DNA of 64,000 nt from Vulcanimicrobiota bacterium (GTDB taxonomy: Bacteria > Vulcanimicrobiota > Xenobia > Xenobiales > JADMJV01), in contig JBFWNU010000001.1 in the NCBI GenBank assembly GCA_050250895.1, positions 3,459,247 through 3,523,246 on the forward strand, written 5' to 3'. Below are positions 19,885 to 62,179 of this stretch, piece after piece. The notes under the pieces are model-generated. The model did not search any database and was not told the origin of the DNA. It was given only the letters and a program-made list of their open reading frames with translations. The position numbers were made by a program, and so were the translations under genes. The stretch's first letter is position 1; every line of letters begins with the position of its first letter.

Positions 19885-20015
19885 CTCGCTCTATAGAAGG
19901 CACCATCCTGGTCTTCGATGTCATAAGGGCCACCCAGGGTTGCTGCCACTACCGGCACCGGTAGGAACTTGAACTCGGGTTTCGACCAGGGTTTCTTTTT
20001 TTTAGGGTCACTCAT
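19881..20015 (-). CDS. Candidate lasso-type RiPP precursor peptide (44 aa), not in the ORF track
   Basis: My translation: ATG at 20015, TAG at 19883-19881, giving MSDPKKKKPWSKPEFKFLPVPVVAATLGGPYDIEDQDGAFYRAS. Thr at -2, Gly1, Glu7/Asp8, bulky F13/Y14/R15 and a C-terminal Ser. It is the last gene of the minus-strand tailoring operon. Confidence 0.7.
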   Translation of the reverse strand: MSDPKKKKPWSKPEFKFLPVPVVAATLGGPYDIEDQDGAFYRAS

Positions 20016-20037
20016 GTGACCACACTTCGCGGTCGAT

Positions 20038-20694: not shown

Positions 20695-21509
20695 GGCTTG
20701 GGCACCAGGTAGCCAAACCTGGCCATGGTTTGGCCGTGTTCGCGTTCGAGCAGCTCTCTTTGAGCTTCATCCAAATGATTGCGGCCGTGGCCGGCTCGGC
20801 CGCTTCGAAAGAAGCTGCCGGAACGGTGCGGACCCTCTCGAAAACCGTCGGCTTGCTCTTGTGCTTGCAGACGATCGAAGGTGGAAAACTCGATAGCTCG
20901 GGCCACTCGTTGTTCTTCGCGCGGTTGGTTCAAAAACTCGAGCGCCGAACCAAAAGTCTGGTGAGGGTGAGCCAGCAGGTCTTCGTAGCGGATCACCAGC
21001 ACCCGAAGTTCGGCAGCCAACCAGCTCTCGACATGGCCACTCCAGCTGCCTACCAGTTCTGGGACCTGCAACCCACGATTGCCCTGAGCCAGGCGATAAC
21101 CGGGGTCGGCCATCCAGCCCGTCACCCGCGCGAGACTCGCGTTGCTGTGATGGGCAAACGAGACGGCCACGTCGTGTGGGTCGCGAACGAGGTAGATGAC
21201 TCCGAAGGTCGCCTCGGGGGGAAAGAGTCTCGGTTGATAGAGATCGTGAACCTTCAAAAAGAGCGGGTCGGTGGTCTGGGCGGCCAGGTGGCGGTAGGCG
21301 ATGGCCCTCCACTCGGGAAGTTCTTCCTCGGTAGCATCCGCCGTTTTTAGTTCCAGCGTGGCATCGAGCAACGCCCGACTGCTGCCCCAGGGTAAGGTGC
21401 CCAGCGCGTTGATCGAGACCGGCACTTTGGCCTGACTGAGATAGTTGGCTAGCAAGACCCTGAGCCAGGTATTGCCGGACTTGGGATACGAGGCAAGCCA
21501 AACGATCAA
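20691..21509 (-). CDS. Sulfotransferase (Sulfotransfer_1-like, aryl/cytosolic type)
   Basis: IVWLASYPKSGNTWLRVLL (PKSGTTW-type 5'-PSB) and IYLVRDPHDVAVSFAHH (RDPRDxxVS-type 3'-PB). Confidence 0.82.
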   Translation of the reverse strand: MIVWLASYPKSGNTWLRVLLANYLSQAKVPVSINALGTLPWGSSRALLDATLELKTADATEEELPEWRAIAYRHLAAQTTDPLFLKVHDLYQPRLFPPEATFGVIYLVRDPHDVAVSFAHHSNASLARVTGWMADPGYRLAQGNRGLQVPELVGSWSGHVESWLAAELRVLVIRYEDLLAHPHQTFGSALEFLNQPREEQRVARAIEFSTFDRLQAQEQADGFREGPHRSGSFFRSGRAGHGRNHLDEAQRELLEREHGQTMARFGYLVPKP

Positions 21510-22342
21510 GAACGAATCCTTTCTGCCAGTTCGGGCAACCGACCGGCCGGCACCCTGGCTCGCCAGAACTCGAGGTCAGAACCGGCCAAGTGACTCGCTT
21601 GACGAAAGTTCTCGCTCATCAGACCCAGGGCCCTCAGACCGGAGCGCGACGGAGTGTATCTGAGCAGAACTTCAAGGCCCTCGCGCCGACTCGACCGGGT
21701 GAGCGAGATTTGCTCGCCATTCCATAGACTGAGGTCATAGACACGTCGAACGAGCACGGGTGTGCCTGGTCGGGCCGGTTTCAGATGTCGCGCCAGGTTG
21801 GGCCGGCGGACCAACCAGTCAGAACCCCTGGGTCGTCCCAGGGTGATGTAGGGTGGGCCCGGCACGAGTCGATTTTCGGCCAGCACCACCAGTTCGTCAC
21901 TGATGAAATCGCAGCCCTGCTGATGCAGCAGATCGATGAGGGTCGACTTGCCCGCCCCGGAGATACCGACAAAGATCATGCCGCCACTTGGGCCGACCAC
22001 AGCGCTGGCCTGAAGGACCGCTCTGCCGGACAGAGTCAGCAGCACACCCAAGACATTCCCTAGAAGAAACGTCTCGATATCCTGACTGGTCACTTCTGCC
22101 TCGCTCTCGACGGTGACCTGATGGTTGGGGCGGATCAAGTATCTGGCCACTTTGGGCACGTGAAGGAGTAGCAGGCCGTCGCTGGTCTCCCAGAGCGGAC
22201 CGTGGCGGCGGCCGCCTGGCAGGCGTCGGGGTACGGGGCCGCGTCGGACCGTCCAATCGGGAGCGGTGTCGGTGGGAGTCAAGCGTTGGCTGGACCAATC
22301 CAGGCCCAGGGCCAGGCCAAAAGCGTTGTAGACTTCGAGCAT
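21506..22342 (-). CDS. Second HPr kinase-related kinase
   Basis: N-terminus MLEVYNAFGLALGLD, LQASAVV, P-loop GISGAGKSTLIDLL, SDELVVL. 4-nt overlap with the downstream sulfotransferase. Confidence 0.75.
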   Translation of the reverse strand: MLEVYNAFGLALGLDWSSQRLTPTDTAPDWTVRRGPVPRRLPGGRRHGPLWETSDGLLLLHVPKVARYLIRPNHQVTVESEAEVTSQDIETFLLGNVLGVLLTLSGRAVLQASAVVGPSGGMIFVGISGAGKSTLIDLLHQQGCDFISDELVVLAENRLVPGPPYITLGRPRGSDWLVRRPNLARHLKPARPGTPVLVRRVYDLSLWNGEQISLTRSSRREGLEVLLRYTPSRSGLRALGLMSENFRQASHLAGSDLEFWRARVPAGRLPELAERIRS

Positions 22343-22354
22343 CGGTGCGCCTCG

Positions 22355-23179
22355 CTAGCCGCGCAACCGGTAGCCAAAGTTTGCCAGCAGGGCCTCACAC
22401 TCGCCGTAGACCCGGTTGAGTGTCGCCAGATCCTCGCCACTCAAGCGCCCCCACTGTTGCTCGTTCATGTTGCGCAAGGGCTCATCATAGCTTCCTTTGA
22501 CCGGTAGCTGCTGGCGCAGGTCGAGGTCGGCCAGTTGCGGCATCAAGCCGGCGATCTGGGCTTGCACCTGTTGAGGTCGGTCGCACATGTCTTCATAGCT
22601 AAAGAATGTCCCCAGATGGCCATAGCGGCGGAGATTCTCGGCTTGCGCCTCGAGACAAAGGGCCAGGTGGAGAGCGGCCAGAGCCAGGCGCTCCTGACGT
22701 TCGTAACCCGCCAGGCAAAGGCGGCGCGAGATTCCTTCGGCGGTCGCATACGGGTCGCGAACCATGAAAAGGAAGCGAGCATCCGAGAAGCTGTCCACCA
22801 GTTGGTCGACGAGCAGGAGAAAGGGCGGAGACTTCTCGACGAAGACGGTCGCCCCGGCGCTCCGTGAGAAGGCCTGAAAATACCAGGCTCGGCGAGTGGT
22901 CACCCAGTCAAAGTTGGCAGGGTTCTGAAAGGCAGCGACCCATTGTGGCCTGGTGGCCCAGATGGTGGCCGCGCCGAGGGCGCGCGAACTCGGACCGGCG
23001 AAGCCGAAAGTGTGTTGGCCTTCGCGGGGCAGGTTCCAGGTGGCCCGACTGGTGGCCAGAGCGTTTCGCAAGAATGTGCTGCCGCTATTGTTAGGGCAAA
23101 TGACAAAGAGATGATGCTCGACCAGAGTGGGCAGGTCGGCAAGCGCCCCTCGGAAGATCTTGGTGGCCCCGGATTTCAA
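22355..23179 (-). CDS. Sulfotransferase (third sequence type)
   Basis: LFVICPNNSGSTFLRNAL (P-loop-like 5'-PSB) and FLFMVRDPYATAEGISRR (3'-PB-like). Confidence 0.7.
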   Translation of the reverse strand: MKSGATKIFRGALADLPTLVEHHLFVICPNNSGSTFLRNALATSRATWNLPREGQHTFGFAGPSSRALGAATIWATRPQWVAAFQNPANFDWVTTRRAWYFQAFSRSAGATVFVEKSPPFLLLVDQLVDSFSDARFLFMVRDPYATAEGISRRLCLAGYERQERLALAALHLALCLEAQAENLRRYGHLGTFFSYEDMCDRPQQVQAQIAGLMPQLADLDLRQQLPVKGSYDEPLRNMNEQQWGRLSGEDLATLNRVYGECEALLANFGYRLRG

Positions 23180-24105
23180 AGCTCGGATAGGTTGGCCTCA
23201 GGGAAGGTCGTCGTGGCCGGGTTTCGGTTTTGGCCCGAATCCCCCCTGCTCGAGCTGTCGTGGGGGCGCACCCTTAGAGCTTGCAGGTGGGTGGACGCGT
23301 CTAGAAAGCTGCGCTGCCAACGAGCCCAGCAGTGGAGAAACCTTGGCGAGGCCAGCCCTCGCCAGAGGGCCGAACTGGACCATGGCTTGACCGGAGTATT
23401 GTAATGCAAGACCCTGGCCTGGAGCCAGGAAATACCGCTGTGGGCCGAGATGGTCTGGGCGTGGAGTAGTAGATAATTGAATTCACAGCCGACCAGGGTT
23501 TGCTTGCCCTGGAGCAGCCGATTGAGAACCAGTTGGTCGGTGTGCGGTTGCTCGACGCCGGACCAGGTGTCGGGCCTCAGCAAACCCAGCGCCGCCTGAT
23601 AGGTTGATGGTTCGAATTGGCTCGGATCGACCACCATGAATCCCGAGTTGAAGGTGTTCTTCAAGCTGCCGCCGGCCAGCGGCGAGTAGGTCACCGGGTC
23701 GCGAGGCAGACCTCGGTAGTAGGCACCGTCTCCGGCACAAAGGAGGGGACCCGTGTGGTCCAGGACGGGCTCGATCGAATCAAGAAAGAGCAGGTCGCTG
23801 TCGCAGAAGAACAGGCGTTCATAGCGGGTCCACCGGAAGAGTTCCAAAGAATAGAAACGAGCCTTGCGATCGTTTAACTCAGGCCGAGCCAGGACCAACT
23901 CGCCCACCTGTGCTTGAAGTTCGCGGCTGACCGGCACCAACCGGGCCCCGGTAGCTTTTTCGAGCAATCTGCGCGAAGAACCGGGCAGACGGTGATGCAG
24001 CACCAGGATGTCTCCGCCGAACCAGGGGTTATGGCGGCGGAAGGAGTGGAGCATCACCAACGTGCCTAGCACAAAGCTCTGACTGGTGACGGTAATCAGG
24101 GCCAT
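23176..24105 (-). CDS. Glycosyltransferase family 8-like
   Basis: ITVTSQSFVLGTLVMLHSF, DxD (FFCDSDLLFLD), FNSGFMVVD. Start MALITV at 24105 is preferred; alternatives at 24120 and 24162. Confidence 0.72.
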   Translation of the reverse strand: MALITVTSQSFVLGTLVMLHSFRRHNPWFGGDILVLHHRLPGSSRRLLEKATGARLVPVSRELQAQVGELVLARPELNDRKARFYSLELFRWTRYERLFFCDSDLLFLDSIEPVLDHTGPLLCAGDGAYYRGLPRDPVTYSPLAGGSLKNTFNSGFMVVDPSQFEPSTYQAALGLLRPDTWSGVEQPHTDQLVLNRLLQGKQTLVGCEFNYLLLHAQTISAHSGISWLQARVLHYNTPVKPWSSSALWRGLASPRFLHCWARWQRSFLDASTHLQALRVRPHDSSSRGDSGQNRNPATTTFPEANLSEL

Positions 24106-24197
24106 TCGCGAATGGGCCATAGGGTCAGGTTGGCTGGAAGCGGCCTTCGTCCCTTTGAACAACCGGGCAGCGATTCTGCAATCAGGGCGGTTAGACC

Positions 24198-47066: not shown

Positions 47067-48017
47067 ATGAACAAAGTGTTAAAAGTTTCGAACAAGTTTG
47101 TTAACCTGTTCGATTGGCTCCAAAGGAATGACTCTGCTGGCCCAGAAACTCGGGGAGTGGGGAAGCGGTTGCTCATACTCGAGGACGATGAGGACATGCG
47201 CGAGAGCCTGTTGGAAGCGCTCGAAGACCTCGATTTTGACGTGACCGGCGCTGCTTCCAGCCACCAGGCCCTCGAGCTGGCCCGGCGTTCTCGTTTTGAC
47301 CTGGTGATTCACGATGTGCGCATGGCCGAGATGGACGGGCTCGAGGCGATGGCCGGTATCCGCCAGCTGCAACCCGACATCAAGGCCATCGTGATCACCG
47401 GTTATGCCGACGATAGCGCCCCCACCCGGGCCATCCAGCAGCGTGCCTCGGACTACATCTACAAGCCGTTCCAGCTGCGCGAATTGATCAAAGTGATCGA
47501 GAACGTGCTCAGTGCCGAAGAACTGGCCCGCCGGAACGACGGCATCATGGAGAAGCTGTCGCGGGGGTTTCAGGCTTTGCGTTCGCGCTTGACGGCCCGT
47601 CGCTGGGAAAGTGTCAGACAGTTGCGCCTGGATACTTATCAGGCCTATTTCGTGGGGGTGCGCTCGCGCAAGCTCGACGAGCGCAACGCCCGTCGCCTGT
47701 GGTATCTGTTCGAGCCGCTCGAAGGGCTGTGGTTGCAAGAGAGAGAGCAAGACCTCGACACCCTCGAGCAACGCTATCAGTACATCCTGGACCTGCTGGG
47801 GGCACTCGACCGGCAAGAACTGCAGCTCAACGAAGTCAGCAAGTCCATCGATGCCGATCTCTTTGCCGGTTTCTATCGGCGCCTGCAAGAAGGTAAGCTG
47901 GCTTTGCATCAGCTCACCATGGCCGCGTTCTTGCGCTCCGTCGATCGGGTGACGCTACTGCAGTTTCCCGACATGCAAGAGCTACGCCGACTGGTTTGGG
48001 GTCAGCCCCAGGAGTGA
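47067..48017 (+). CDS. Response regulator with uncharacterised helical C-terminal domain
   Basis: LLILEDDEDMRE, VIHDVRMAEMDG, IYKP. The C-terminal roughly 190 aa have no recognisable family. Confidence 0.78.
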   Translation: MNKVLKVSNKFVNLFDWLQRNDSAGPETRGVGKRLLILEDDEDMRESLLEALEDLDFDVTGAASSHQALELARRSRFDLVIHDVRMAEMDGLEAMAGIRQLQPDIKAIVITGYADDSAPTRAIQQRASDYIYKPFQLRELIKVIENVLSAEELARRNDGIMEKLSRGFQALRSRLTARRWESVRQLRLDTYQAYFVGVRSRKLDERNARRLWYLFEPLEGLWLQEREQDLDTLEQRYQYILDLLGALDRQELQLNEVSKSIDADLFAGFYRRLQEGKLALHQLTMAAFLRSVDRVTLLQFPDMQELRRLVWGQPQE

Positions 48018-50380
48018 GCGGCCACATTCTTCTGCTCGAAGACGACCAGCACATGCGGGCGGCGCTGGTCCAGGTGCTTACCGACCAGGGCTATGAGGTC
48101 ACGGCCGTCACCCGGGGCGAAGAGGCGGTGGAGAAGGCTCGTGCCCACAGTTTCGACCTGATCGTGGCCGACATTCGGATGGAAGGAATGGGCGGGCTTG
48201 AGGCCGTCGCCCAGACCAAGCAGCACCAGCCCGACATCGGCTCGCTGCTGGTGACCGGTTACGCCTCCGAAGAAGAGACCTCGCGGGCGCGCGATCTCAG
48301 GGTGGGCGGTTACTTGAAGAAGCCCTTTCGCATGCGTAAGCTGGTGGAACTGGTCAATCAGCAACTGGCCGCCCGTCGCACCCAGCAACGACGCCAGGCC
48401 CGAGGCTCCAATCACCGGCGCATCTCGTTGTGGGCGCTGGGCGAGTTGGCCCGACTGGCCGACCGCGAGGGCGTGGTCCAGGCCAGTGGCACCCTGGCCC
48501 GGGCGGGCGGCCTGGCCGAGTCGCTGGCCGGGCTGCTCGAACTCGAGCCCGAAGTAGCCCAAGAGTTGGGCGTGGCCACCATGTTGTTACCCCTGCGCGA
48601 TCGCCTGGGATGGTCGTGTGAGCCGCTGCTGGATGACCCGAGCCTGTTGCCGGTGGTGGCCTCGGTGCTGTCCCCCCCCGACCCCGAGGCCGGGCTCCCC
48701 GTCGAGGTTGCTCTGGCCGACCTTTGTTGGACCGCCTGTCAGGACCGCCCCGACGAGGAGTTGCCGGATGCCGATGAGCTGGCCCAGCGTTACCCCGGCC
48801 GTTTCGAGCCAGAGCTGCTGGCGGACTATCAGCGCGTGCGCCAGACTCGCCCCCTGGTCAGTGATAGCCAGGCTCTGCCGGGTCACGAGCCGCGCAGCTT
48901 GCTGGGCCTGGCCCGAACTTTGGAGCGGGTGGGCGACCACGAGGCGGCCGAGCGGGCCTATCGCGAGGTGCTGGCGGCCAGCCGCACCCGCCGCTCGGGA
49001 GTTGAAGCGCGGCTGGGACTGGGCCGGCTGGCTCTGGCCGGCAAGTTGCCCGACCAGGCCCGGCAGCTGGTGGAAGAGGCCACCGCCGCGGCCCGCAGCC
49101 TGGGGCCGGTGGCCAAGGCCGGCGCCCAGCTCGAAGCCGGGCTGACCTTGCTGCAACTTGGCGCCGAAGAGGCTAGCGAGGTGCTGAGGGCGGCTCGCGA
49201 CGGCTATGACCGACTGGGGCTTTCGGCCGGAGCCGCCCTCGCCAGTGTGGCCCTGGCCCGGCTCGGCGAGGTCGACGACTTTTCTCAAAGGCTGGCGGCC
49301 CTGGTGGGTGGCGCCCGCTCCCCCGAGGTGGAAGCGGCCCTGGCCTGGCTCTGGCCCAGTCTGCTCGAGCTTTCGGGCCAGCTCGACTGCGAATCGGCGG
49401 TGCTCGGTCTGTTGGGCCAGTTGAGCTGGTCTCTCGAGGCGCTCCTGGCCCAGGGGCGCCTGAGCCGCGAGCACAAGTTGCGCTTGCTGGAGATGCTCGA
49501 GGCCGGGGGCGGCTTCGGGCCCGAAGGGCTGGTGGCCCGCCTGAGCCAGGACTCCGACAGCGAACTGGCCGAACGAGCCGCTCGTCTGGGCGAAGAGGCA
49601 AGCTCGGCCCCGGCCGCCCCCACGGTGAGGGTCAGCTCGTTTGGATACTTCACCGTTCAGATCGGGGGCAAGGTGCTCTCGGACCGCGAGTGGCGCACCC
49701 AGAAAACCCGCTATCTGTTCGCCTATCTGGCCAACCCCTGGGGTAGCCAGTCCCACTCCGAGGCCGTGCTCGAAGCCTTTTGGCCCGAAGACCTGATGAA
49801 GGCTCGTCAGGCTATGTATTGGTCCATCTCGACCGCCCGCCGCGTGATGCGCGAGCATTCCGACGAGTTGAGCGAGTTGATCGTGCGTGACGGCGACAAT
49901 CTATGCCTGGCTGGCGAGATTCCCCACTGGCACGATGTGGAGGAGTTCGAGCGGGCCTACGAGGCCGCCCGAACGGCCGACCAGGAGGGGCGGCATCAAG
50001 AGGCTCAAGCAGGTTACCGCGAGGCGGTCGAACTCTATCGAGGACCCTACCTCGAGGGGTGCTTTTTCGACTGGGCTCTCGAGCGTCGCCGCGATTACAC
50101 CCGCAAATGCAGCGACGCTCTCGCGAAGCTGGCCGGGGCGGCCGCCGCTCGCGATGACCATGACCTGACCCTGGAATACGCCCAACGTTTGCTCGAGCAA
50201 TCGCCCCACGCTCAGGATGCCCACCTGTTGGTCATGAATACCTATCTCAAGACGGGCCGCCCCGAACTTGCCATCGAGCAGTTTCGGCGCTGCGAGAAAC
50301 TGTTGCGTAGCGAGTACGAGCTCGAGCCGGTCACCGAGTTGATCGAAGCCTATTATCGGGCTCGCCTGGAGATGCCTTGA
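48014..50380 (+). CDS. Receiver-domain protein with a long helical/TPR-like middle and a C-terminal SARP-type winged-helix plus BTAD domain
   Basis: GTGA overlap with the upstream gene. REC: ILLLEDDQHMR, IVADIRMEGMGG, LKKP. C-terminus: VRVSSFGYFTVQIGGKVL...WRTQKTRYLFAYLA (wHTH) followed by BTAD (YREAVELYRGPYLEG...AHLLVMNTYLKTGRPELAIEQFRRCEKLLRSEYELEP). Confidence 0.78.
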   Translation: MSGHILLLEDDQHMRAALVQVLTDQGYEVTAVTRGEEAVEKARAHSFDLIVADIRMEGMGGLEAVAQTKQHQPDIGSLLVTGYASEEETSRARDLRVGGYLKKPFRMRKLVELVNQQLAARRTQQRRQARGSNHRRISLWALGELARLADREGVVQASGTLARAGGLAESLAGLLELEPEVAQELGVATMLLPLRDRLGWSCEPLLDDPSLLPVVASVLSPPDPEAGLPVEVALADLCWTACQDRPDEELPDADELAQRYPGRFEPELLADYQRVRQTRPLVSDSQALPGHEPRSLLGLARTLERVGDHEAAERAYREVLAASRTRRSGVEARLGLGRLALAGKLPDQARQLVEEATAAARSLGPVAKAGAQLEAGLTLLQLGAEEASEVLRAARDGYDRLGLSAGAALASVALARLGEVDDFSQRLAALVGGARSPEVEAALAWLWPSLLELSGQLDCESAVLGLLGQLSWSLEALLAQGRLSREHKLRLLEMLEAGGGFGPEGLVARLSQDSDSELAERAARLGEEASSAPAAPTVRVSSFGYFTVQIGGKVLSDREWRTQKTRYLFAYLANPWGSQSHSEAVLEAFWPEDLMKARQAMYWSISTARRVMREHSDELSELIVRDGDNLCLAGEIPHWHDVEEFERAYEAARTADQEGRHQEAQAGYREAVELYRGPYLEGCFFDWALERRRDYTRKCSDALAKLAGAAAARDDHDLTLEYAQRLLEQSPHAQDAHLLVMNTYLKTGRPELAIEQFRRCEKLLRSEYELEPVTELIEAYYRARLEMP

Positions 50381-51414
50381 CGGCCTGGCTGCTGGCGGCG
50401 GCCGTCGCCCTGGGGGCCGCTCGCAGCGAGCCCGGCTGGCAACAGGTGGTGGCCACCAGCCTGGAGCGCTTTTCGGCCGTCCGGGTCATCCTCTTTGAAC
50501 TCGAGCCTGAACTGGTCCATCAGCGGGGTGAACTCGGCTTTGAGCGAGCCCGCTGGCTGCCGCAATCAGCCGGTCTTAGCCCGGAGGGGTGGCTGGTGGC
50601 TCCCATCCTCAACGACGACAAGCCCCTGGGATTGATCGTGGCCGCCGGTGAGGCGGACGACCTCGACGGGCTACGACTGTTTGGCCATCTGGCCGGGGCC
50701 AGCCTGACCAACTTGCGGCTGTTGGACCAGCTGATGCAGTCAGCCAAGCTGGCCACCCTCGGTCAGATGACGGCCGGGGTAGCCCATGAACTCAACAATC
50801 CGCTAGGGGCGATGACCCTGTGGCTGGATACGGCTTCGATGCTGGTCGACCGCAAGCCCGAGAAGGCCGTGGCCCAGATCGAGTCGGCCCTCGAGGCGCT
50901 CGAGCGCTGTCAGCGCATTCTCGACAACGTGCTGCATTTCGCTCGCAAACGGGAAGCTCACAGCACCGAGGAGATCACTCTCGACACCCTGGTAGAGCGG
51001 GTGCTCGAGACCCTGCATCCCAATCTCAAACGGATTCCTCAGACGGTCGAGTTGGGTTCGCGCGCCCGGGTCGAGGGCAACAGTCTCGAGTTGCAGCAGC
51101 TGCTGGTCAACTTGCTGCTCAACGCGCGCGACGCCCTGCTGCCGGTGGAGGGTCCTCGGCTGTGGGTGAGGACGCGCCAGCAGAACGGTCGAGCCCGGGT
51201 CGAGATCGAAGACAACGGCCCCGGAGTGGGAGCGGCCGACGCGGAGCGGATCTTTGCCCCGTTCTTCACCACCAAGCCTCCGGGCAGTGGCACCGGGCTC
51301 GGCCTCTCCTTGAGTCGCGAGATAGCCCGCAGCCACCAGGGCTATCTGACCGTGACCGGCGGCGCCCAGGGCGGGGCCCTGTTCGTACTCGACCTACCCG
51401 TGGCCGAAGTTTGA
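50377..51414 (+). CDS. GAF-like domain histidine kinase
   Basis: TTG start overlaps the upstream stop (TTGA). H-box AGVAHELNNPLG. N box LLLNARDA. DNGPGV. GTGLGLS. Confidence 0.82.
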   Translation: MTAWLLAAAVALGAARSEPGWQQVVATSLERFSAVRVILFELEPELVHQRGELGFERARWLPQSAGLSPEGWLVAPILNDDKPLGLIVAAGEADDLDGLRLFGHLAGASLTNLRLLDQLMQSAKLATLGQMTAGVAHELNNPLGAMTLWLDTASMLVDRKPEKAVAQIESALEALERCQRILDNVLHFARKREAHSTEEITLDTLVERVLETLHPNLKRIPQTVELGSRARVEGNSLELQQLLVNLLLNARDALLPVEGPRLWVRTRQQNGRARVEIEDNGPGVGAADAERIFAPFFTTKPPGSGTGLGLSLSREIARSHQGYLTVTGGAQGGALFVLDLPVAEV

Positions 51415-51927
51415 ATCGGCTAGATAGTGGTCGAGGTGATGGGCCCGGTCCTCGCAGCCCATGAGCACGCCCCGCAGCAGGGTCTCGGAGCCGAAGTCGC
51501 CCAACTCGTTGGTGGCCCGAATGGATTGGCGCAACATCATAGCCATACGCTGCTCGGCTCGCAGGTCGTGCACCAGCATGGCCCGCAACGGATAGTTCTG
51601 CTCGGGCTCGTGGTCGAGATAAGAGAACTCTAGCAGCGCGGCCGGACTCGAGGCGGGCATGCCGCCGAGCATGGTGACGCGCTCGGCCACTGCATCGAGA
51701 GCCTTGAGGACGGCGGTGTACTGTTCTTCGAAGAAGTGATGCAGATCGCGGAAGACGTGCCCCTCGACCATCCAGTGATGCTTCTGGTATTGGTGAAACA
51801 GTACGCTCAGCGAAGCCTGGTGGCGGCGTAAGTCGGTGGCCACCGCCGAGGCGGTCTCGCTCTCGAGTCCGATCGGATTGCCGGTGTTCTCTTCGGATAT
51901 GCCTGGTTGAGAAGAAAGTGTGTCCAC
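51394..51927 (-). CDS. dps: Dps family DNA-protection/ferritin-like protein
   Basis: LFHQYQKHHWMVEGHVFRDLHHFFEEQY and DAVAERVTMLGG are typical Dps ferroxidase-site helices. Confidence 0.88.
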   Translation of the reverse strand: MDTLSSQPGISEENTGNPIGLESETASAVATDLRRHQASLSVLFHQYQKHHWMVEGHVFRDLHHFFEEQYTAVLKALDAVAERVTMLGGMPASSPAALLEFSYLDHEPEQNYPLRAMLVHDLRAEQRMAMMLRQSIRATNELGDFGSETLLRGVLMGCEDRAHHLDHYLADSNFGHG

Positions 51928-54436: not shown

Positions 54437-55804
54437 CTAACCTGGCAGGCGTAAACGCGAAGGAATCTGCTCGAGCCGCCGCCAGTCCTGCCAGCTCTCG
54501 CGAGCGCGAATCAGCTCGACCCCGTGGCCTCCTACCAGGACCACCGCCGGCCGGGTCTGAATGAACTGCCACGATTGGGAGAAGTTGTAAGCCCCCACCC
54601 GCTTGACGACCAGTGGGTCGCCCCGCCGGACCGGCGGCAGGGGCACCCCGTGGCGCAGGATGTCGATCTGCATGCAGAGCGAGCCGAAGACCGAGGCCTC
54701 TTCCAGCATGCCACAACCTTCGAAGGCCGGCACGATGTCGTGGCGATACCAGTTGGCCGTATAGAGCAGGTTGACGCCCGCGTCGACGACCACACCGCGG
54801 CTGCCGTCGCAAAGACGTCGGTTCGAAACCACCGAGGTACCCAGATGCATGGCCTCGTCAACCAGAAACCGACCCGGCTCGAGGAATAGGGTCGGCAGTT
54901 TTTCAAAGCCCGCCGCCAACAACCGGGGGCCGATGGCCCGGGCATAGTCCTCGGCCGCTGGACAGGCGTATTCGGCCGGCAAGGGTTCGCCATGGAGCGA
55001 ATTGCCGGCCGCAAAACCGCCTCCCAGGTCGAGATCTTCGAGTTCGACCTGGTGCTGTTGGCGCAAGAGCCGGGCTAAGCCTAGAACTCGCTCGAGGGCC
55101 ATCCCATAGCGGTTGGGGTCGAGCACGTAGGTGCCGATGTGGCAGTGCAGGCCACGCAAGCGAAGATAGGGCGAGCCCACGATCCGGCGGGCGGCCTCCA
55201 GAGCCTGGCCGCTCTCGAGGTTGAGGCCAAAGCGGTCCCAGGGGACAGCGTCCAGGCGCACGTTCACGCGCAGGCCGACCGGCAGCCGTTGGCCGACTTG
55301 ACGGGCCACTTCTTCAGCCAGAGCGATCTCTTCGAGCGAATCGAGGTTGACCCGGGCCCCCTCCAGGAAAGCGCGCCTGAGCTCGTCGGCCCGTTTGAGC
55401 GGGCCGTTGAAGAGGATGTGGGCGCCCTTCACCCCGTTGGCCCGGGCCAGGGCGTACTCCGTGCCCGAGACCACTTCGGCCCAGGCGCCTTCGCTGTGCA
55501 GCACCGAACAAAGGGCGCCCAGGTAATTGGTCTTGTAGGAAAAGGCGATCACCGTGCGCGGATAGTGCAGCTCGAAGGCCCGGGCCAGCCTGCGATACTG
55601 CTGGCGCAGGGTGGATTCCGAGACCATCCACAAAGGCGAGCCGAACTCGTCCATCATGCCCCTGATTTCATGACCGTCGAGATGAGTGAAGGGGGCGGCG
55701 GTCCGCATGGGACCGTAGGGGTTCATCCGACCCACGGCGTGGCGGATGATGGCCGGCCTTTGATAGGGCCGGCGCTGGTCTACCTGAACATCAGACTGCA
55801 GCAC
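54437..55804 (-). CDS. PLP-dependent decarboxylase (Orn/DAP/Arg decarboxylase fold-type III family)
   Basis: AFSYKTN (PLP-Lys region), HCHIGT, DLGGGF, LEPGRFLV. 455 aa. Confidence 0.82.
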   Translation of the reverse strand: MLQSDVQVDQRRPYQRPAIIRHAVGRMNPYGPMRTAAPFTHLDGHEIRGMMDEFGSPLWMVSESTLRQQYRRLARAFELHYPRTVIAFSYKTNYLGALCSVLHSEGAWAEVVSGTEYALARANGVKGAHILFNGPLKRADELRRAFLEGARVNLDSLEEIALAEEVARQVGQRLPVGLRVNVRLDAVPWDRFGLNLESGQALEAARRIVGSPYLRLRGLHCHIGTYVLDPNRYGMALERVLGLARLLRQQHQVELEDLDLGGGFAAGNSLHGEPLPAEYACPAAEDYARAIGPRLLAAGFEKLPTLFLEPGRFLVDEAMHLGTSVVSNRRLCDGSRGVVVDAGVNLLYTANWYRHDIVPAFEGCGMLEEASVFGSLCMQIDILRHGVPLPPVRRGDPLVVKRVGAYNFSQSWQFIQTRPAVVLVGGHGVELIRARESWQDWRRLEQIPSRLRLPG

Positions 55805-56837
55805 GGATCAGTTCTCCTTTCATGGCTAAACTCTCGAGGTCGCTCACATCGCCCACCACATCCAGAGCGTGGCGCACGAAGAACTTTCCGGTCTGATAGT
55901 CGAGGCGGGGCGGCGGCTCGTTTCCCAGCAACTCTTGCAGCGCCAGGGCCGGCAGGTTGAGGCCGGCCCCGGCCGACAGATAGATCCAGGACGGAAAGCG
56001 AGGGTTGATTTCGAGCAGATAGAAGCGGTCGCTGGCGCTATCGAGCAGAAACTCGAACTCGACGGGCCCCACCCAGGCCAACTTCTCCATCAGCCGCCGA
56101 GCCTTGCCCAACAGTCCCTGGTGGCTTACCGTGATGGCAGCCCAGGCGGTGCCTTTGGCCGTGATTCTCAGCTTGCGCATGGCCACCCAACCCAGCGGTA
56201 GGCCCGCTCGTGAGCCGACGGCCGCCACGTCGTATTCCTCGCCGCAAAGATGTTCTTGCACCAGCAAAGGCAGCCCCCACTCGCGCCGGGTTTGTTCGAA
56301 CCAGACGGCCGCCTCGCCCGGGTGGTGGGCCACCCGGGCCCCGTGAAAGACGCCCTTCACCACCACCGGCCAGCCCCAGGCGTGACCCATTTCGACCACC
56401 TCTTGAGGGCTGTGGACCACCCGGGTGCGAGGGTGCAGAAAGCCATGCTCGCGGCAGAACTCGGCCAGATGCAGCTTGGATCGCAGCTTGAGCACCCGGG
56501 GGCTGGGCAAAAGCGTGCGCACCCCCATCTCGGCGAGCCGGCCGGCCAGGCGGGCATAGCCCATCAGCTCCGAGTCGAGGTTGGGCACCAGGGCTTGGAA
56601 GGGGCGTCGCTCCAGGATGTGGCCGAGGCGCTCGAGCAGAACCTGCTCGCCTTCAAACGGATAGGGCACTAGATAGGTTTCATCGAGCAGACCGGGGCTA
56701 TGCACGCAGGTGTCCAGGGCGTCATAGGCCAGGCCCACGAAACGATGCTCCCCGGCCTCGCGCAGGCAACGCACCACGGCCATGCCCGGAGCGGGGTTAT
56801 CGGTGGCGTTGAGTCCGGTGACGGCTACGGTCGTCAT
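55791..56837 (-). CDS. ATP-grasp ligase
   Basis: WPVVVKGVFHG, LVQEHLCGEEYDV, LLEINPRFP(SW) are ATP-grasp fold motifs. It overlaps both neighbours (14 nt and 4 nt). Confidence 0.8.
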   Translation of the reverse strand: MTTVAVTGLNATDNPAPGMAVVRCLREAGEHRFVGLAYDALDTCVHSPGLLDETYLVPYPFEGEQVLLERLGHILERRPFQALVPNLDSELMGYARLAGRLAEMGVRTLLPSPRVLKLRSKLHLAEFCREHGFLHPRTRVVHSPQEVVEMGHAWGWPVVVKGVFHGARVAHHPGEAAVWFEQTRREWGLPLLVQEHLCGEEYDVAAVGSRAGLPLGWVAMRKLRITAKGTAWAAITVSHQGLLGKARRLMEKLAWVGPVEFEFLLDSASDRFYLLEINPRFPSWIYLSAGAGLNLPALALQELLGNEPPPRLDYQTGKFFVRHALDVVGDVSDLESLAMKGELIRAAV

Positions 56838-57103
56838 TGTAGGGCCGCCAATCCGAGCTGGCCAGCCTGCAACAGAAACTCATACACGTCCACCTGAGCC
56901 TGTTCGGGCTCCACTTCAAACTCGCCGGCCAGCCTCACCGCCATTTCGCCTGGCTCAAGCCCTTCCCGCAGGCGCTGCAACAGAAAGGCTGCCGACTCGT
57001 TGAGCCCAAAGGTCTGCCCTGAGGTGGGACAAAAGACGAAGCTGCCGGGCTCGGCCGAAGCCGCGAAAGGGCTGGGACGGTAGGGGATGGGACTGGTCTT
57101 CAT
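56834..57103 (-). CDS. PqqD-family (RRE-like) small protein
   Basis: 89 aa: FVFCPTSGQTFGLNESAAFLLQRLREGLEPGEMAVRLAGEFEVEPEQAQVDVYEFLLQAGQLGL, matching the PqqD pattern. 4-nt overlaps on both sides. Confidence 0.72.
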   Translation of the reverse strand: MKTSPIPYRPSPFAASAEPGSFVFCPTSGQTFGLNESAAFLLQRLREGLEPGEMAVRLAGEFEVEPEQAQVDVYEFLLQAGQLGLAALQ

Positions 57104-58842
57104 TGGAGTTCTCCGATCTCACCGCTGCGGTAGAGCAGCATGTCGTCCATGTGGTAGCCGTAGCGGGGGCAGAACTGGCAGCCCTCGAGCTGGCAATCCT
57201 TTTTGAGTACTTTGCGGCCCCACAGGGCGACTTCGTACGTGCCGCCGTGATAGGCCGAGGTCGAGAAAGTCTCGCGAAAAGACCCGCTCTTGAGCGAGCG
57301 CACCAGGTGGCGTCCGTCGCGCACGGCATCGCGGGCGTTGACGGGATACATGGACACGCCCACATAGGCTCGCCGGGGAGTTTGCCCGGTGATCTCGAGC
57401 AAGCGGCCGGCCGAGACCACCAGCGTCGGGTCGGGGGAGGGGCTGGCACTGCTACTCAAAGCGGCGCTCAGCATCAGCGCCAAGAGGCTGGCCGCGAACA
57501 AAGTCTTGATCGTCATGACACTCCTTGGTGGGGCTTGACTCACCAGGCTTCCCTGGCGGGGGACAGGGCCGGCCGGGCCGACCTGGTTCTGGAAGGGACG
57601 AAAGTGAGCGGCCACGGTATGGCCACCGAGCACAGGTTGGCTCTGCAGTTGAAGATGCAGATGCGGTTCGCAAGAATAGCCCGAGTTGCCGCACTCACCG
57701 AGCAGTTGACCGCGACCAACCCGCTGCCCCGGACGAACCACCACCGAGCCCTGGCGAAAATGGCTCAACTCGCTATAGTAGCTGCCGTGGCGCAGGATGA
57801 CGTAGTTTCCCCAGTTGTGCTCGGTCTGGGGTTGACCCGGAGGGTTGTCGGGCAGGCTGTTCTCGACCGCCACCACCACTCCGCCCGCCGGTGCGAAGAC
57901 GGCGCGCCCCCAGCAGTAGTAGTCTTCCAGTCGCTCGCCTTGTTCGCGAAAGCTGCGGCCCTGGCCGTCGAGCACGATGAAGTCCCAGGCGTGACGCCAG
58001 GGTCCCTGGTGAGTCCAATCGCCGTCGGCGCCCTGACTGACGTACCACCAGCCCCGAAAGGGAAGGCTCAGACAGGGCTTGCGCAGTCGCCAGGCCTGGG
58101 CCACCAGCACCACGAACACGAAAGGCGCCACCAGCGTGCGCAGGCCGAAAAGCTCGAGGCTGGCCCGGGTCAGCAGAAGGGTCAGGCCGCTGCCGAGTGC
58201 GGCCGGCGCCAGTCCTTCCCAGAGGCTAGGCGCAAAGACCGCGCCCAGAGCAACAGCCGTCAAGGCGGCGTTGAAAGCCACCACCGGCGAGTCGGTGAAG
58301 AGCAGTCCTAGTCCGCCTCCCACAGCGGCCAGCAGGGCCTGATAAGGGCGCTGCCAGAGCAGGGCGGCCCCAACCAAAAGCCCGGCCAGATCGTGGGGCG
58401 TGAAGACCACTGCCCCCAACCAGCCCAGCAGCGAAGGGTGCCCCTCGACGGCCGGCCCGCTCACCAGGGCCCAGCCGCACAGCAGGAAAGGCAGACTCAG
58501 CACCGGCAACTCGCCCAGGGCCAGGCTCAGCTGGTCGACCAGCCAGGCGCTGACCAGAGCGCAGCCGACCGCCACCGGCAGGCCCAGCCAGAGCGGCCAG
58601 CTCAGCCACCCCACCAACAAGCCGGTCAGGGCTCCGTTGCAACCATAGAGCCCGTCTTCGACCCCCCGCCGGCCTCGCATTCCCCACAGGGTCGCCACCA
58701 CTGCCCCCAGCAGGCCGAACAGTCCCAGGGCGGGGTCGAGCAGGCTGGCCAGCAACACCAGCCCACCGCTCACCGGCTTCGAGCAAAAGAAGATTTGTCC
58801 GTAGCCGGCGAGAACCGAGGGCAGAAGCTTACGTATAGGCAA
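57100..58842 (-). CDS. Fusion protein: urea-transporter-like membrane domain, M23 metallopeptidase domain and a C-terminal Cys-containing domain
   Basis: UT-like N-terminus (AGYGQIFFCSKPVSGGLVLLASLL plus about 9 TM helices). M23 motifs (HNWGNYVILRHGSYYSELSHF, GNSGYSCEPHLHLQL). TTG start at 58842, so the start is uncertain. See the finding on the in-frame internal start at 57516. Confidence 0.72.
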   Translation of the reverse strand: MPIRKLLPSVLAGYGQIFFCSKPVSGGLVLLASLLDPALGLFGLLGAVVATLWGMRGRRGVEDGLYGCNGALTGLLVGWLSWPLWLGLPVAVGCALVSAWLVDQLSLALGELPVLSLPFLLCGWALVSGPAVEGHPSLLGWLGAVVFTPHDLAGLLVGAALLWQRPYQALLAAVGGGLGLLFTDSPVVAFNAALTAVALGAVFAPSLWEGLAPAALGSGLTLLLTRASLELFGLRTLVAPFVFVVLVAQAWRLRKPCLSLPFRGWWYVSQGADGDWTHQGPWRHAWDFIVLDGQGRSFREQGERLEDYYCWGRAVFAPAGGVVVAVENSLPDNPPGQPQTEHNWGNYVILRHGSYYSELSHFRQGSVVVRPGQRVGRGQLLGECGNSGYSCEPHLHLQLQSQPVLGGHTVAAHFRPFQNQVGPAGPVPRQGSLVSQAPPRSVMTIKTLFAASLLALMLSAALSSSASPSPDPTLVVSAGRLLEITGQTPRRAYVGVSMYPVNARDAVRDGRHLVRSLKSGSFRETFSTSAYHGGTYEVALWGRKVLKKDCQLEGCQFCPRYGYHMDDMLLYRSGEIGELQ

Positions 58843-59409: not shown

Positions 59410-60178
59410 CTGGTGCCGGGCTTGGCTAGGAGTAAGGCACGTGACAGCGCCGAATTCGGGCCTGGCCGGGCTTGGCTAGGAGTACGGCACGTGACAGCGC
59501 CGAATTCGGGCCTGGCCGGGCTTGGCTAGGAGTACGGCACGTGGCAGCGCCGAATTCGGCACCTGGTGGCGCCGTACCGCGCCTGGCCGGGCTTGGCTAG
59601 GAGTACGGCACGTGGCAGCGCCGAATTCGGCACCTGGTGGCGCCGTACCGGGCCTGGCCCGGCTTGGCTAGGAGTACGGCACGTGGCAGCGCCGAATTCG
59701 GCACCTGGTGGCGCCGTAACCCGGGCTGGCCGGGCGTGGCTAGGAGTACGGCACGTGGCAGCGCCGAATTCGGCACCTGGTGGCGCCGTACCCGGGCTGG
59801 CCCGGCTTGGCTAGGAGTACGGCACGTGGCAGCGCCGAATTCGGCACCTGGTGGCGCCGTACCCGGGCTGGCCCGGCTTGGCTAGGAGTACGGCACGTGG
59901 CAGCGCCGAATTCGGCACCTGGTGGCGCCGTACCGCGCCTGGCCGGGCTTGGCTAGGAGTACGGCACGTGGCAGCGCCGAATTCGGCACCTGGTGGCGCC
60001 GTACCGGGCCTGGCCCGGCTTGGCTAGGAGTACGGCACGTGGCAGCGCCGTACCGGGCCTGGCCGGGCGTGGCTAGGAGTACGGCACGTGGCAGCGCCGT
60101 ACCGGGCCAGGCGGGCGTGGCTAGGAGTACGGCACGTGGCAGCGCCGAATTCGGCACCTGGTGGCGCCGTACCGGGCT
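59410..60178. repeat. Intergenic tandem repeat array, 12 copies (units of 48-50 bp and 70-73 bp)
   Basis: The GGCTAGGAGTA anchor occurs at 59424, 59474, 59524, 59595, 59666, 59739, 59809, 59880, 59951, 60022, 60071 and 60119. Long unit: GGCTAGGAGTACGGCACGTGGCAGCGCCGAATTCGGCACCTGGTGGCGCCGTACCGGGCCTGGCCCGGCTT. It contains the palindrome GCCGAATTCGGC and inverted GTACGGC/GCCGTAC arms. Confidence 0.92.
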
Positions 60179-60262
60179 AGGCGCGACCCATCGCGGCGAA
60201 GCCGCCCAAAGTTACGACGCGAAGCGTCGAGTACCTCAAAAACTCGAGGTGAGCCAAAGCGA

Positions 60263-60512
60263 ACCTCGCTCCTTCCTCCCGAGCGCAGCGAGGGCTCCTT
60301 TCTCCCGAAGGGGCTCCCTTCTCCCGAAGGGCTCCTTCCTCCCGAGCGCAGCGAGGGCTCCTCTCTCCCGAAGGGCTCCTTCCTCCCGAGCGCAGCGAGG
60401 GCTCCTTTCTCCCGAAGGGGCTCCTTTCTCCCGAAGGCCTCCTTCCTCCCAAGCGCAACGAGGGCTCCTCTCTCCCGAGCCCAGCGAGGGCTCCCCGAAG
60501 GGCTCTCCAACA
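60263..60512. repeat. Short-unit tandem repeat (about 18- and 26-bp units, about 11 copies)
   Basis: Alternating units GCTCCTT(T/C)CTCCCGAAGG and GCTCCTTCCTCCCGAGCGCAGCGAGG lie between the previous array and the ATG at 60533. Confidence 0.88.
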
Positions 60513-60532
60513 CCGGCCTGGAAACAGCCTCG

Positions 60533-62179
60533 ATGCAAAGCGATGCGATCGTGGTCGGAGCCGGGCTGGCCGGGTTGGTGGCGACAGCCGAATTGGCCGC
60601 GGCAGGCAAGCGGGTCGTGCTCGTGGACCAGGAGTCCGAGGCGAACCTGGGGGGGCAGGCCTTCTGGTCGCTGGGCGGATTGTTTCTGGTCGATTCGCCC
60701 GAGCAGAGGCGCTTGCGCATTCGCGACAGCTACGAGTTGGCGCTGGCCGACTGGTTGGGCACAGCCGGGTTCGACCGCGAGGAAGACCATTGGCCGATGC
60801 GCTGGGCCACAGCTTACGTCGACTTTGCCGCTGGCGAAAAGCGAGCCTGGCTCAGCCAGCGGGGCTTTCGCTTTTTTCCGGTGGTGGGCTGGGCCGAACG
60901 AGGCGGTCAAGGCGCCATCGGTCACGGCAACTCGGTGCCGCGCTTTCATGTGACCTGGGGGGCGGGACCGGGGGTGGTCGAGCCGTTCGAGCGGCTGGTG
61001 CGCCAGGCTGCCGAGCGGGGGTTGGTCACCTTCAAGTTTCGTCACCGGGTCGAGCGACTCGAGCGAAAGGACGGGGCTGTCACCGGTATCTCGGGTCAGG
61101 TGCTCAAAGACGACGGGGCCCAGCGCGGGTATCCCACCAACCGCGAAGTGGTGGGCGACTTTGCCTTCGAGGCGCCGGCGGTGATCGTGACCTCAGGCGG
61201 CATCGGGGCCAATCATGAGCTGGTGCGCAAGAACTGGCCCCAGCGTCTGGGCCAGGCTCCCCGGCGGCTCTTGACCGGCGTGCCTGACTACGTCGACGGA
61301 CGCATGCTGGCAGTGGCCGAGCAGGCCGGGGCCCGGCTCATCAACCGCGACCGAATGTGGCACTACACCGAGGGCATCGCCAACTGGGACTCTATCTGGA
61401 CGGGCCATGGCATCCGCATCTTGCCCGGCCCCTCCTCGATGTGGTTTGACGCCACCGGCAAGCGACTCCCCGTGCCGCTCTTTCCGGGCTTTGACACGCT
61501 GGCCACCCTCGAGCATATCCTCAAAACAGGTTATGACTATTCGTGGTTTATCTTGACCCAGAAGATCATCGAGAAAGAGTTCGCGCTTTCGGGTTCAGAG
61601 CAAAATCCCGACCTGACCGGCAAGAGCTTATGGAAGTTGTTGCAGCGGCTGGGCCCGGGGGCGCCTCCTCCGGTCGAGGCCTTCAAGCAGAAGGGGGCGG
61701 ACTTCGTGGTGGCCCGCGAGCTGGGTGAACTGGTGCATGGCATGAACGCCCTCACTCCCGAGCCCCTTTTGGATGCGGCCTCGATCGAGCATCAGATTCG
61801 GGTACGAGACGGGCAACTCGACAACCCCTTCTGTAAAGACCTGCAGGTGGTGGCTTTGCGCGGCTCTCGCAACTATCTGGGAGATCGCTTGCTGCGAGTG
61901 GCCGCTCCTCACAAGCTTCTCGACCCGGCCGCCGGGCCACTCATCGCCGTGCGCCTCAACATTCTCACCCGCAAGACCCTGGGTGGGCTCGAGACCGACC
62001 TCTCGGCTCGCGTGATCGGGGCTGATGGCCAGCCGATCGGGGGGCTGTATGCGGCCGGTGAGGTGGCCGGCTTCGGCGGGGGAGGCATGCACGGCTACCG
62101 CGCTTTGGAAGGAACCTTCTTGGGGGGCTGTATCTTCTCGGGTCGGACTGCCGGCCGCGCCGCCGCAGGGGCTGTTTAA
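60533..62179 (+). CDS. FAD-binding dehydrogenase (COG3573-like, fumarate reductase/KstD-type flavoprotein fold)
   Basis: ATG at 60533 gives MQSDAIVVGAGLAGLVATAELAAAGKRVVLVDQE (GxGxxG). C-terminal GLYAAGEVAGFGGGGMHG. The track's N-terminal extension runs through the repeats. Confidence 0.82.
   Translation: MQSDAIVVGAGLAGLVATAELAAAGKRVVLVDQESEANLGGQAFWSLGGLFLVDSPEQRRLRIRDSYELALADWLGTAGFDREEDHWPMRWATAYVDFAAGEKRAWLSQRGFRFFPVVGWAERGGQGAIGHGNSVPRFHVTWGAGPGVVEPFERLVRQAAERGLVTFKFRHRVERLERKDGAVTGISGQVLKDDGAQRGYPTNREVVGDFAFEAPAVIVTSGGIGANHELVRKNWPQRLGQAPRRLLTGVPDYVDGRMLAVAEQAGARLINRDRMWHYTEGIANWDSIWTGHGIRILPGPSSMWFDATGKRLPVPLFPGFDTLATLEHILKTGYDYSWFILTQKIIEKEFALSGSEQNPDLTGKSLWKLLQRLGPGAPPPVEAFKQKGADFVVARELGELVHGMNALTPEPLLDAASIEHQIRVRDGQLDNPFCKDLQVVALRGSRNYLGDRLLRVAAPHKLLDPAAGPLIAVRLNILTRKTLGGLETDLSARVIGADGQPIGGLYAAGEVAGFGGGGMHGYRALEGTFLGGCIFSGRTAGRAAAGAV

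Follow-up and report, generated by a model that had tools for sequence, protein, structure and literature searches.

A widespread bacterial cassette of an RRE, an ATP-grasp ligase, a decarboxylase with a leader-like tail and a UT-M23 membrane protein

We analysed a four-gene operon on the minus strand of a 64,000-nucleotide stretch of DNA (the window) from a Vulcanimicrobiota bacterium (GenBank assembly GCA_050250895.1, contig JBFWNU010000001.1, positions 3,459,247 to 3,523,246). Its genes encode a membrane protein with a UT-family domain and an M23 metallopeptidase domain, a small PqqD-family protein, an ATP-grasp ligase and a fold-type III pyridoxal 5'-phosphate (PLP) decarboxylase. The window carries the Eremiobacterota-type form of a cassette found widely across many bacterial phyla. 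By sequence, the small protein is a recognition element of the kind (RRE) known from pathways for peptides that are ribosomally synthesized and then post-translationally modified (RiPPs), and the only leader-like motif that accompanies it is on the N-terminal tail of the decarboxylase. From the motifs on both partners we infer that the RRE binds this tail. Our leading explanation, held tentatively, is that ligase, decarboxylase and peptidase may form a membrane-associated complex by way of the RRE and the tail, making and exporting an amide-linked amine product. Literature searches found no published description of this gene combination, in agreement with a preliminary description of the DNA that had not recognised it as a described system. 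What is new is the cassette together with the apparent recognition of an enzyme tail by an RRE; the parts are familiar, and there is a real chance that the whole is more distinct than a variant of an RRE system.

Features of the operon are collected in Table 1. Successive genes overlap by 4, 4 and 14 nt according to the open reading frame (ORF) coordinates. The decarboxylase stop codon, TAG, occupies 54439-54437, and 26 nt later the ATG at 54410 opens a histidine kinase gene whose product begins MTPPAAIARASS... The coordinates agree with the gene arrangement given in the preliminary description, and the overlaps uphold the translational coupling proposed there. Its four domain assignments also stand, each Pfam match of the four proteins, and of the kinase, exceeding the gathering score. 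NCBIfam gave sub-threshold matches only, none of the four proteins being covered by a curated naming model. The gene calls of a relative, L086, have the same spacing, and the kinase keeps its position in L086 and L087; it is probably the last gene of the operon or its regulator. Base composition is even, at about 65% GC, and a scan for promoter and terminator consensus sequences returned nothing beyond shuffled expectation. Because the genes and their overlaps recur in independent assemblies (81-93% identity) and the module recurs across phyla, the four genes are confirmed as a genuine, tightly packed operon and not a chance adjacency.

Table 1. Features of the operon, in window coordinates
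Feature	Coordinates	Strand	Basis
UT-M23-c10 ORF, 580 aa	57100-58842	minus	Pfam UT + Peptidase_M23
UT-fold polytopic membrane domain, residues 1 to ~250 of the 580-aa ORF	58093..58842	minus	Pfam UT, hydropathy
M23 metallopeptidase domain, residues ~262-436	57535..58059	minus	Pfam Peptidase_M23
c10 module, 138 aa, signal-peptide/transmembrane helix + Ig/FN3-like beta-sandwich	57100..57516	minus	junction DNA, homology
PqqD-family RRE, 89 aa	56834-57103	minus	Pfam PqqD
ATP-grasp ligase, 348 aa	55791-56837	minus	Pfam ATPgrasp_Ter + CPSase_L_D2
Fold-type III PLP decarboxylase, 455 aa	54437-55804	minus	Pfam Orn_Arg_deC_N + Orn_DAP_Arg_deC
Leader-like decarboxylase tail, residues 11-31	55712..55774	minus	Y14-Q-R-P17-A-I19 ... 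G25 ... N28-P-Y30-G31
Multi-transmembrane GAF histidine kinase, 805 aa	51993-54410	minus	Pfam GAF, HisKA, HATPase_c

An alignment of the ATP-grasp family (A1) was used to gather 80 metagenome loci, and each gene was counted among the loci with enough sequence to hold it. The PqqD-like gene was present in 72 of 73 loci and lay directly upstream of the ATP-grasp gene, overlapping or abutting it, in 69 of the 73. The decarboxylase gene was present in all 56 loci with room for it and the UT-M23 gene in 42 of 43, the sole miss being an over-extended ORF that holds both UT and M23. The genes, whose co-occurrence elsewhere had been left as a point to check, thus do keep together. All of the first neighbourhoods inspected had the order PqqD, ATP-grasp, decarboxylase, UT/M23; the window has a rotation of this common order with UT-M23 first, as do L086 and L087. 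A genome-contig search with a single protein query yielded one locus, L005. Word-indexed searches with the 89-aa PqqD-like protein and the 138-aa c10 module, which found two close relatives and one, respectively, supplied the sister loci L086-L091.

At E <= 1e-5 the ATP-grasp protein had 1646 homologues, the best 120 of which were 40-89% identical; the plasmid collection contained no match. Hymenobacter gummosus and metagenome-assembled genomes (MAGs) of Eremiobacterota, Armatimonadetes, Ignavibacteriae, Planctomycetota and Chloroflexi are named carriers both of the homologues and of the module, for which an uncultured Nannocystaceae MAG is a further named example. With 1646 ATP-grasp homologues, and with Bacteroidota, Myxococcota (the Nannocystaceae MAG) and five MAG-based lineages represented, the cassette is common. 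Some homologues are longer, and fusion of PqqD to ATP-grasp was ruled out as the cause: the N-terminus of P0020 is of low complexity, and P0060 (607 aa) consists of two tandem ATP-grasp units of the window's family, the second truncated.

The small protein matches the Pfam PqqD model (PF05402) at 46.2 bits against a cut-off of 23.4 (5.8e-12), over profile positions 7-66 of 67. A 30-member alignment of its family (A3), used as a profile against the PDB, matched the lasso peptide proteins TbiB1 (5v1u, 3.9e-14) and TfuB1 (6jx3, 3.5e-11) ahead of PbaB1 (9x90, 5e-5), LppB (9x8z, 8e-4) and PqqD itself (3g2b, 0.016). These scores place the protein in the PqqD/RRE family, as the preliminary description had proposed, closest to the lasso B1 proteins and with a predicted winged-helix fold. 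Seven residues (G21, F22, F24, G29, N35, D72 and F76) are invariant or nearly so in A3, and the termini are variable. In HMMER alignment N35, D72 and F76 fall on LppB N33, D70 and F74, with identical spacings of 37 and 4. In LppB, N33 fixes a kink at the leader proline, D70 hydrogen-bonds the leader tyrosine and F74 stands between two hydrophobic pockets; conservation of N33 and D70 is reported for many lasso and PQQ RREs (PMC13381572). Discrete RREs of the lasso type bind a [Y/W]xxPx[L/V/I/F/A] motif (PMC13381572; PMC10368454). Because N35, D72 and F76 sit on the leader-contact residues of LppB, the small protein appears to be equipped to bind such a motif. One relative locus, L025, has two tandem PqqD-family paralogues upstream of its ATP-grasp gene (2317-2800).

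A matching motif stands at the start of the decarboxylase. The enzyme aligns with FslC from residue 37 and with LysA of M. jannaschii from residue 42; ahead of both lies the tail peptide QRRPYQRPAIIRHAVGRMNPYG. Among 54 family members, position 14 is always aromatic (Y in 47, F in 5, W in 2), P17 and an I, L or V at position 19 are present in all 54, as is G31, and G25 is found in 52. Other conserved tail positions in the family are K11, N28, K29 and F30; the tail in the window has no lysine, which rules out a tail lysine as a swinging arm. The tail motif, [Y/F/W]xxPx[I/L/V], equals the motif bound by the discrete lasso-type RREs. The decarboxylase is the only protein family of the module with the motif near a terminus, against a background of 3.7% in the first 40 residues of the other genes in the loci.

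Behind the tail the decarboxylase is a recognizable member of its fold (Orn_Arg_deC_N, 102 bits, plus Orn_DAP_Arg_deC). The motifs of the PLP lysine (SYKTNY) and HCHIGT, DLGGGF, EPGR and GAYN are conserved across the family. The best PDB match by sequence was FslC (7kh2, 2e-48), closely followed by an archaeal LysA (1twi, 7e-47). The scores against curated models were 231 bits for lysA (TIGR01048, cut-off 297.9) and 182 bits for FslC (NF041039, cut-off 500), both under threshold. At the substrate motif the window has CMQID and the family consensus CMNID; the enzyme shares CMQxD and a shortened loop with FslC, and LysA has CES(G/S)D. By these sequence comparisons it resembles FslC without being an FslC orthologue. 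The preliminary description had likened it to BtrK of butirosin biosynthesis, a likeness that is not supported: BtrK (2j66, 7ru7) does match, at about 1e-24, but ranks under FslC and many LysA structures. Decarboxylases of fold type III require a free alpha-amino acid and are inactive on a residue inside a peptide, and the substrates of FslC and BtrK are amino acids tethered via their side chains. By analogy, then, the substrate here is likely to be an amino acid that is acylated at, or linked through, its side chain. The rhizoferrin pair FslA, an NRPS-independent siderophore (NIS) synthetase, and FslC, an N-citrylornithine decarboxylase, offers a fitting logic of amide formation on a side chain followed by alpha-decarboxylation. 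The cassette differs in having no NIS synthetase or siderophore genes, and the leader-like tail is outside the stretch that aligns with FslC.

The ATP-grasp protein matches Pfam ATPgrasp_Ter (44 bits) and CPSase_L_D2; all NCBIfam models of the PRK12767 type scored under their cut-offs. Its AlphaFold2 model has pLDDT 93 and pTM 0.90. The best Foldseek match was 2pn1, a protein of unknown function, followed by carbamoyl phosphate synthetase (CPS), biotin carboxylases, RizA and BL00235. Sequence and model together indicate a carboxylate-amine ligase of the clade of CPS, biotin carboxylases and L-amino-acid ligases. Graspetide biosynthesis is similar in its ATP-grasp chemistry and RiPP-like setting. 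The graspetide (microviridin/RimK-like) ligases, however, belong to another ATP-grasp branch, RimK-type chains matching the protein at E of about 0.008 in profile and structure searches; they bind leaders themselves and always occur with precursor genes (PMC8939145).

The first gene had been described as a fusion of a UT-like domain with an M23 peptidase. Both domains are present, and the two-part architecture gives way to a three-part one, since the ORF ends in a third module, which we call c10. The UT domain scores 85 bits (5.4e-24) against Pfam UT, above cut-off, and only 48 bits against urea_trans_yut (TIGR03441, cut-off 274.6). Because the latter score is so far under its cut-off, the domain is not orthologous to the urea transporters, and its membership is at the level of the Pfam fold family only. 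It is shorter than in most relatives, has a multi-pass hydropathy profile and repeated LPxLSLPF and LxxLVAPF motifs, and ends in RLRKP. Export, suggested in the preliminary description, remains plausible. The M23 domain (51 bits, 1.3e-13) has the zinc ligands and catalytic residues of its family (H...D, H, HxH): H278, D287, H361, H394 and H396 are invariant in 47 of 47 family members, with an atypical spacing in the first motif, H-x8-D in place of HxxxD.

Proteins of the UT family have both termini inside the cell. Because a K/R-rich stretch leads out of the last UT helix ahead of M23, a transmembrane helix and the secreted-type c10 domain follow M23, and UT topology is in-in, the sequence places the peptidase most likely in the cytoplasm, which is unusual for the family. 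This location argues against a direct cell-wall role, and the cell-wall-directed action suggested in the preliminary description is not sustained.

The c10 module begins inside the ORF with its own AAGGAG Shine-Dalgarno sequence, six bases, an ATG and a signal-peptide-like helix, and a C...C-x-W-C motif occurs in it. Stand-alone secreted proteins of about 140 aa are homologous to it; their genes lie directly upstream of PqqD (L006-L009, L012, L018, L020, L078, L093). In the window's lineage it is fused in frame to UT-M23, and the fusion is kept in L086-L091. Four independent assemblies of relatives (81-93% identity) retain the frame, with junction indels in multiples of three, and this rules out the 580-aa ORF as an assembly artefact. 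The c10 family has 73 clusters among 1.84 billion representative proteins, mostly of 130-160 aa; all aligned members have a signal peptide and the signature WLGxSxYP...GGxYEVALW...C..C.WC..GYH. The AlphaFold2 model (pLDDT 94) is one helix and a beta-sandwich, with weak, FN3-like best PDB matches (E >= 0.01), and on this model c10 is a folded secreted accessory domain. Its predicted Ig-like fold and its presence in about a tenth of loci rule it out as a missing precursor. In L092 a c10 homologue (43% identical, 470-1551) lies beside an M50B peptidase on a 3.9-kb contig, away from the module; the family is therefore not exclusive to the cassette.

A 2026 survey of urea-transporter architectures reports UT with a C-terminal M23 domain as a previously unknown bacterial combination (PMC12998343). 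The survey proteins have the architecture of the window's protein; the excerpted text of the survey gives them no function, does not connect them with PqqD, ATP-grasp or decarboxylase genes and is silent on the c10 fusion.

Since the motif on the decarboxylase matches the contact residues on the RRE, we infer that the ligand of the RRE is the decarboxylase's own tail and not a separate ribosomal precursor, which would explain the lack of a precursor gene. Binding of the tail would tie the decarboxylase to UT-M23 at the membrane and to the ATP-grasp enzyme, which is encoded by a gene overlapping the RRE gene. Going by the chemistry of their families, the ATP-grasp enzyme might join a carboxylate, through an amide bond, to the side-chain group of a bifunctional amino acid, and the FslC-like decarboxylase might then strip the free alpha-carboxylate to leave an amine-terminated amide. 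The model chemistry is the conversion of citrate and ornithine to N-citrylornithine and then to N-citrylputrescine. The cytoplasmic M23 domain may trim or release the product, or alternatively cut the decarboxylase tail. The product would leave through the UT-like pore, and in most diderm relatives a tetratricopeptide repeat (TPR) protein and probable outer-membrane barrels could carry it onward. The sensor kinase, or another dedicated regulator elsewhere, would control the operon.

Several points weigh against this explanation. The motif match is one of three specified positions, and the background given above means that 3.7% of unrelated proteins have the motif near the N-terminus; the tail might do no more than serve the structure of this decarboxylase subfamily. 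For the ATP-grasp enzyme the profile and structure searches gave no characterised close relative, so that its substrates are a guess. The UT pore is narrow, which makes it uncertain that anything beyond a small linear amide could be exported. Least secure of all is the role of M23. The outer-membrane assignment of the recurrent barrel-like proteins comes from sequence features only, and the window's own locus is without the recurrent TPR and barrel genes.

Those recurrent genes were found by clustering the ORFs that neighbour the module. In 42 loci there is a TPR protein, about 207 aa long, that has a signal peptide. Another recurrent protein, in 22 loci, measures about 415 aa and combines a signal peptide with a TPR-like stretch and a barrel-like region whose last residues are W-x-F; a third, barrel-like and about 276 aa long, recurs in 10. 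The barrel-like proteins are probable outer-membrane barrels. The window's ORF at 13044-15026 was considered as a TPR partner and rejected, being a generic 660-aa multi-TPR protein. Synthase-dependent exopolymer export (PgaA, BcsC, AlgK/AlgE) is similar in that TPR proteins and barrel-like proteins with a C-terminal aromatic residue follow the module in most diderm relatives, a likeness drawn from sequence features and background knowledge. It differs in that the cassette loci have no conserved glycosyltransferase or synthase and that neither the TPR nor the barrel genes occur in the window.

A possible, if doubtful, extension of the favoured explanation is that an RRE recruited from ribosomal-peptide biosynthesis reads an enzyme-borne leader, with the YxxPxI tail as an address, and that the resulting machine threads an amide or oligo-amide out through a urea-channel-like pore. 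The tail would either assemble a machine of ligase, decarboxylase, peptidase and channel or mark the enzyme for leader-dependent processing by the cytoplasmic M23 domain. Repeated ligation and decarboxylation would give a side-chain-poor product, and in diderms a TPR/barrel conduit would take it across the outer membrane. If so, the secreted product would belong to a new class, and three well-known folds would have found a new use.

RREs are the main handle for class-independent genome mining of RiPPs, and an RRE without a precursor is usually set aside. If the RRE binds the tail, leader recognition by RREs would also serve enzyme assembly or protein maturation. The cassette would in that case place in a functional context, for the first time, the recently noticed bacterial UT-M23 fusions, a rare intracellular M23 peptidase and an exported amine/amide product under two-component control.

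A conventional RiPP pathway, with the precursor encoded elsewhere or too short or variable to detect, is an unlikely alternative. The RRE would present the precursor, the ATP-grasp enzyme make an amide or macrolactam, the decarboxylase supply or tailor an amine, M23 remove the leader, and UT or another transporter export the product. Unlinked precursors are unusual in RRE-dependent pathways, and the demand of the decarboxylase fold for a free alpha-amino acid also speaks against the scheme. We examined 1334 ORFs of 12-90 aa that lie within 2.5 kb of the core and are not covered by larger genes, clustering them with blastp-short. No conserved ORF of this size emerged in the 80 loci. The only widely shared families were PqqD and its antisense shadow; no other family was common to more than three loci, and the sole one found in three overlaps PqqD. 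The spacing on either side of PqqD is often just 3-15 nt, and the window operon has no intergenic space for a short precursor ORF. The absence of a nearby precursor gene, already noted in the preliminary description, is thus borne out, and the only leader-like motif is on a 455-aa enzyme. Some loci do have unique small ORFs upstream of PqqD, such as one of 71 aa in L002.

The strongest argument for a RiPP pathway is the likeness to the lasso proteins B1, B2 and C. The RRE is a clear B1 relative, with TbiB1 and TfuB1 its closest solved relatives, and retains the Asn, Asp and Phe contacts for YxxPxL; the peptidase and ATP-dependent amide-forming enzyme of the module mirror the B2/C pair (PMC10368454). 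Unlike lasso clusters, however, the operon and the conserved gene set have no Asn-synthetase-like cyclase (PF00733), transglutaminase-like B2 or precursor gene; instead M23 is fused to a UT channel, the ligase is a CPS-type ATP-grasp enzyme, and a core PLP decarboxylase bears the only YxxP motif.

Less likely again is that the decarboxylase is itself the 'precursor'. The RRE would present its leader to M23 for cleavage near the conserved N-K-F-G, perhaps with the ATP-grasp enzyme acting too, and the cassette would mature or activate the enzyme at the membrane, much as in leader-dependent processing but on the scale of a protein. Another conserved block, G25..N28-K-F-G31, does lie between the leader motif and the folded core, and M23 enzymes as a family prefer Gly-containing sites. 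All catalytic motifs are nevertheless conserved, hence the protein is an enzyme and not a scaffold, and the idea gives no evident need for the ATP-grasp enzyme and the channel. A precedent is the linear polyphosphorylated peptide (LPP) systems, whose discrete RRE is of the same family (9x8z, above): LppB recognises an N-terminal YxxPx[V/L] on precursors of 35-200 aa and presents them to a membrane peptidase (PMC13381572), which documents precursors with leaders at lengths of up to 200 aa. LPP systems have a kinase, a signal-peptidase-like enzyme and dedicated precursor genes, whereas the cassette has its motif on a catalytically intact 455-aa enzyme and pairs it with ATP-grasp and M23.

Remodelling of peptidoglycan precursors is very unlikely. 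The module would decarboxylate meso-diaminopimelate (DAP) at its D-centre, add a side chain in the manner of the D-aspartate ligase Aslfm and cut stem peptides with M23. DAP or stem peptides are substrates for some members of each of the three enzyme families, M23 retains its full catalytic set, and LytS/LytTR-type regulators stand beside the module in 12 loci. Against this, the predicted location of M23 is the cytoplasm, CMQ or CMN stands where LysA has its signature CES, the loci show no conserved mur, fem or other wall genes, and the RRE and the leader-like tail are left unexplained.

A butirosin-like route, in which the ATP-grasp enzyme would load an amino acid onto the PqqD-like protein and the decarboxylase act on the tethered residue, is hardly tenable: a small protein, an ATP-grasp enzyme and a fold-type III decarboxylase are co-encoded as in BtrI, an acyl carrier protein (ACP), BtrJ and BtrK, and BtrK is a detectable homologue, but the small protein belongs with the RREs and is no phosphopantetheinyl carrier, its termini are variable and its invariant residues include no Ser, Cys, Lys or Glu for attachment (which gives no support to the carrier role suggested in the preliminary description) and are those of non-covalent leader binding, the decarboxylase is far nearer FslC and LysA than BtrK, and the cassette has no aminoglycoside genes.

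The region upstream of PqqD varies among loci. It may hold secreted proteins sorted by the type IX secretion system (T9SS), c10, a GNAT protein, an MFS transporter, a BspA-like leucine-rich repeat protein or regulators. The T9SS proteins were considered as a universal substrate and rejected: they occur in 22 loci only, in a cluster joined mainly via the C-terminal sorting domain. Regulators adjacent to the module elsewhere are the histidine kinase and response regulator of L093 (order c10, PqqD, ATP-grasp, decarboxylase, UT/M23, histidine kinase, response regulator), the LytS/LytTR proteins mentioned above, AraC and extracytoplasmic function (ECF) sigma factors. In two loci the adjacency of PqqD and ATP-grasp is broken by a large secreted FG-GAP/VCBS-like protein of 537-635 aa (L006 4878-6785; L008 6342-7955), which in L008 has a T9SS sorting domain; the ATP-grasp proteins of L006 and L008 are the window's best matches in the metagenome scan (49% and 48% identity).

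On the 3' side of the kinase the window encodes a Dps/ferritin-like protein, another histidine kinase and a large protein of the response-regulator/BTAD/TPR type (51394-51927, 47996-51414). L086 has the same genes there, and the regulatory neighbourhood is therefore conserved within the lineage.

A separate RiPP-like locus occupies window positions 15161-24162. It comprises an Asn-synthetase homologue (PF00733, 15912-17753), 38 kb from the operon, two HprK-like P-loop proteins (18967-19884, 21506-22342), three sulfotransferase-like genes (15161-15955, 20038-21509, 22355-23179), a TPR/2-oxoglutarate-Fe(II) oxygenase (18126-19274) and a possible glycosyltransferase (23176-24162). The locus resembles kinase-tailored lasso clusters; no B1, B2 or precursor gene was identified there.

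Just past the divergent neighbour of the operon is a tandem array (59415-60147) of 7.6 copies of a 71-bp unit at 96% identity, flanked by variants of 49-50 bp. The period is not a multiple of three, and the repeated 'peptides' that appear in ORF lists are therefore non-coding. A second array, with units of 19-107 bp, spans 60268-60505 in the 5' part of a long ORF (60161-62179).

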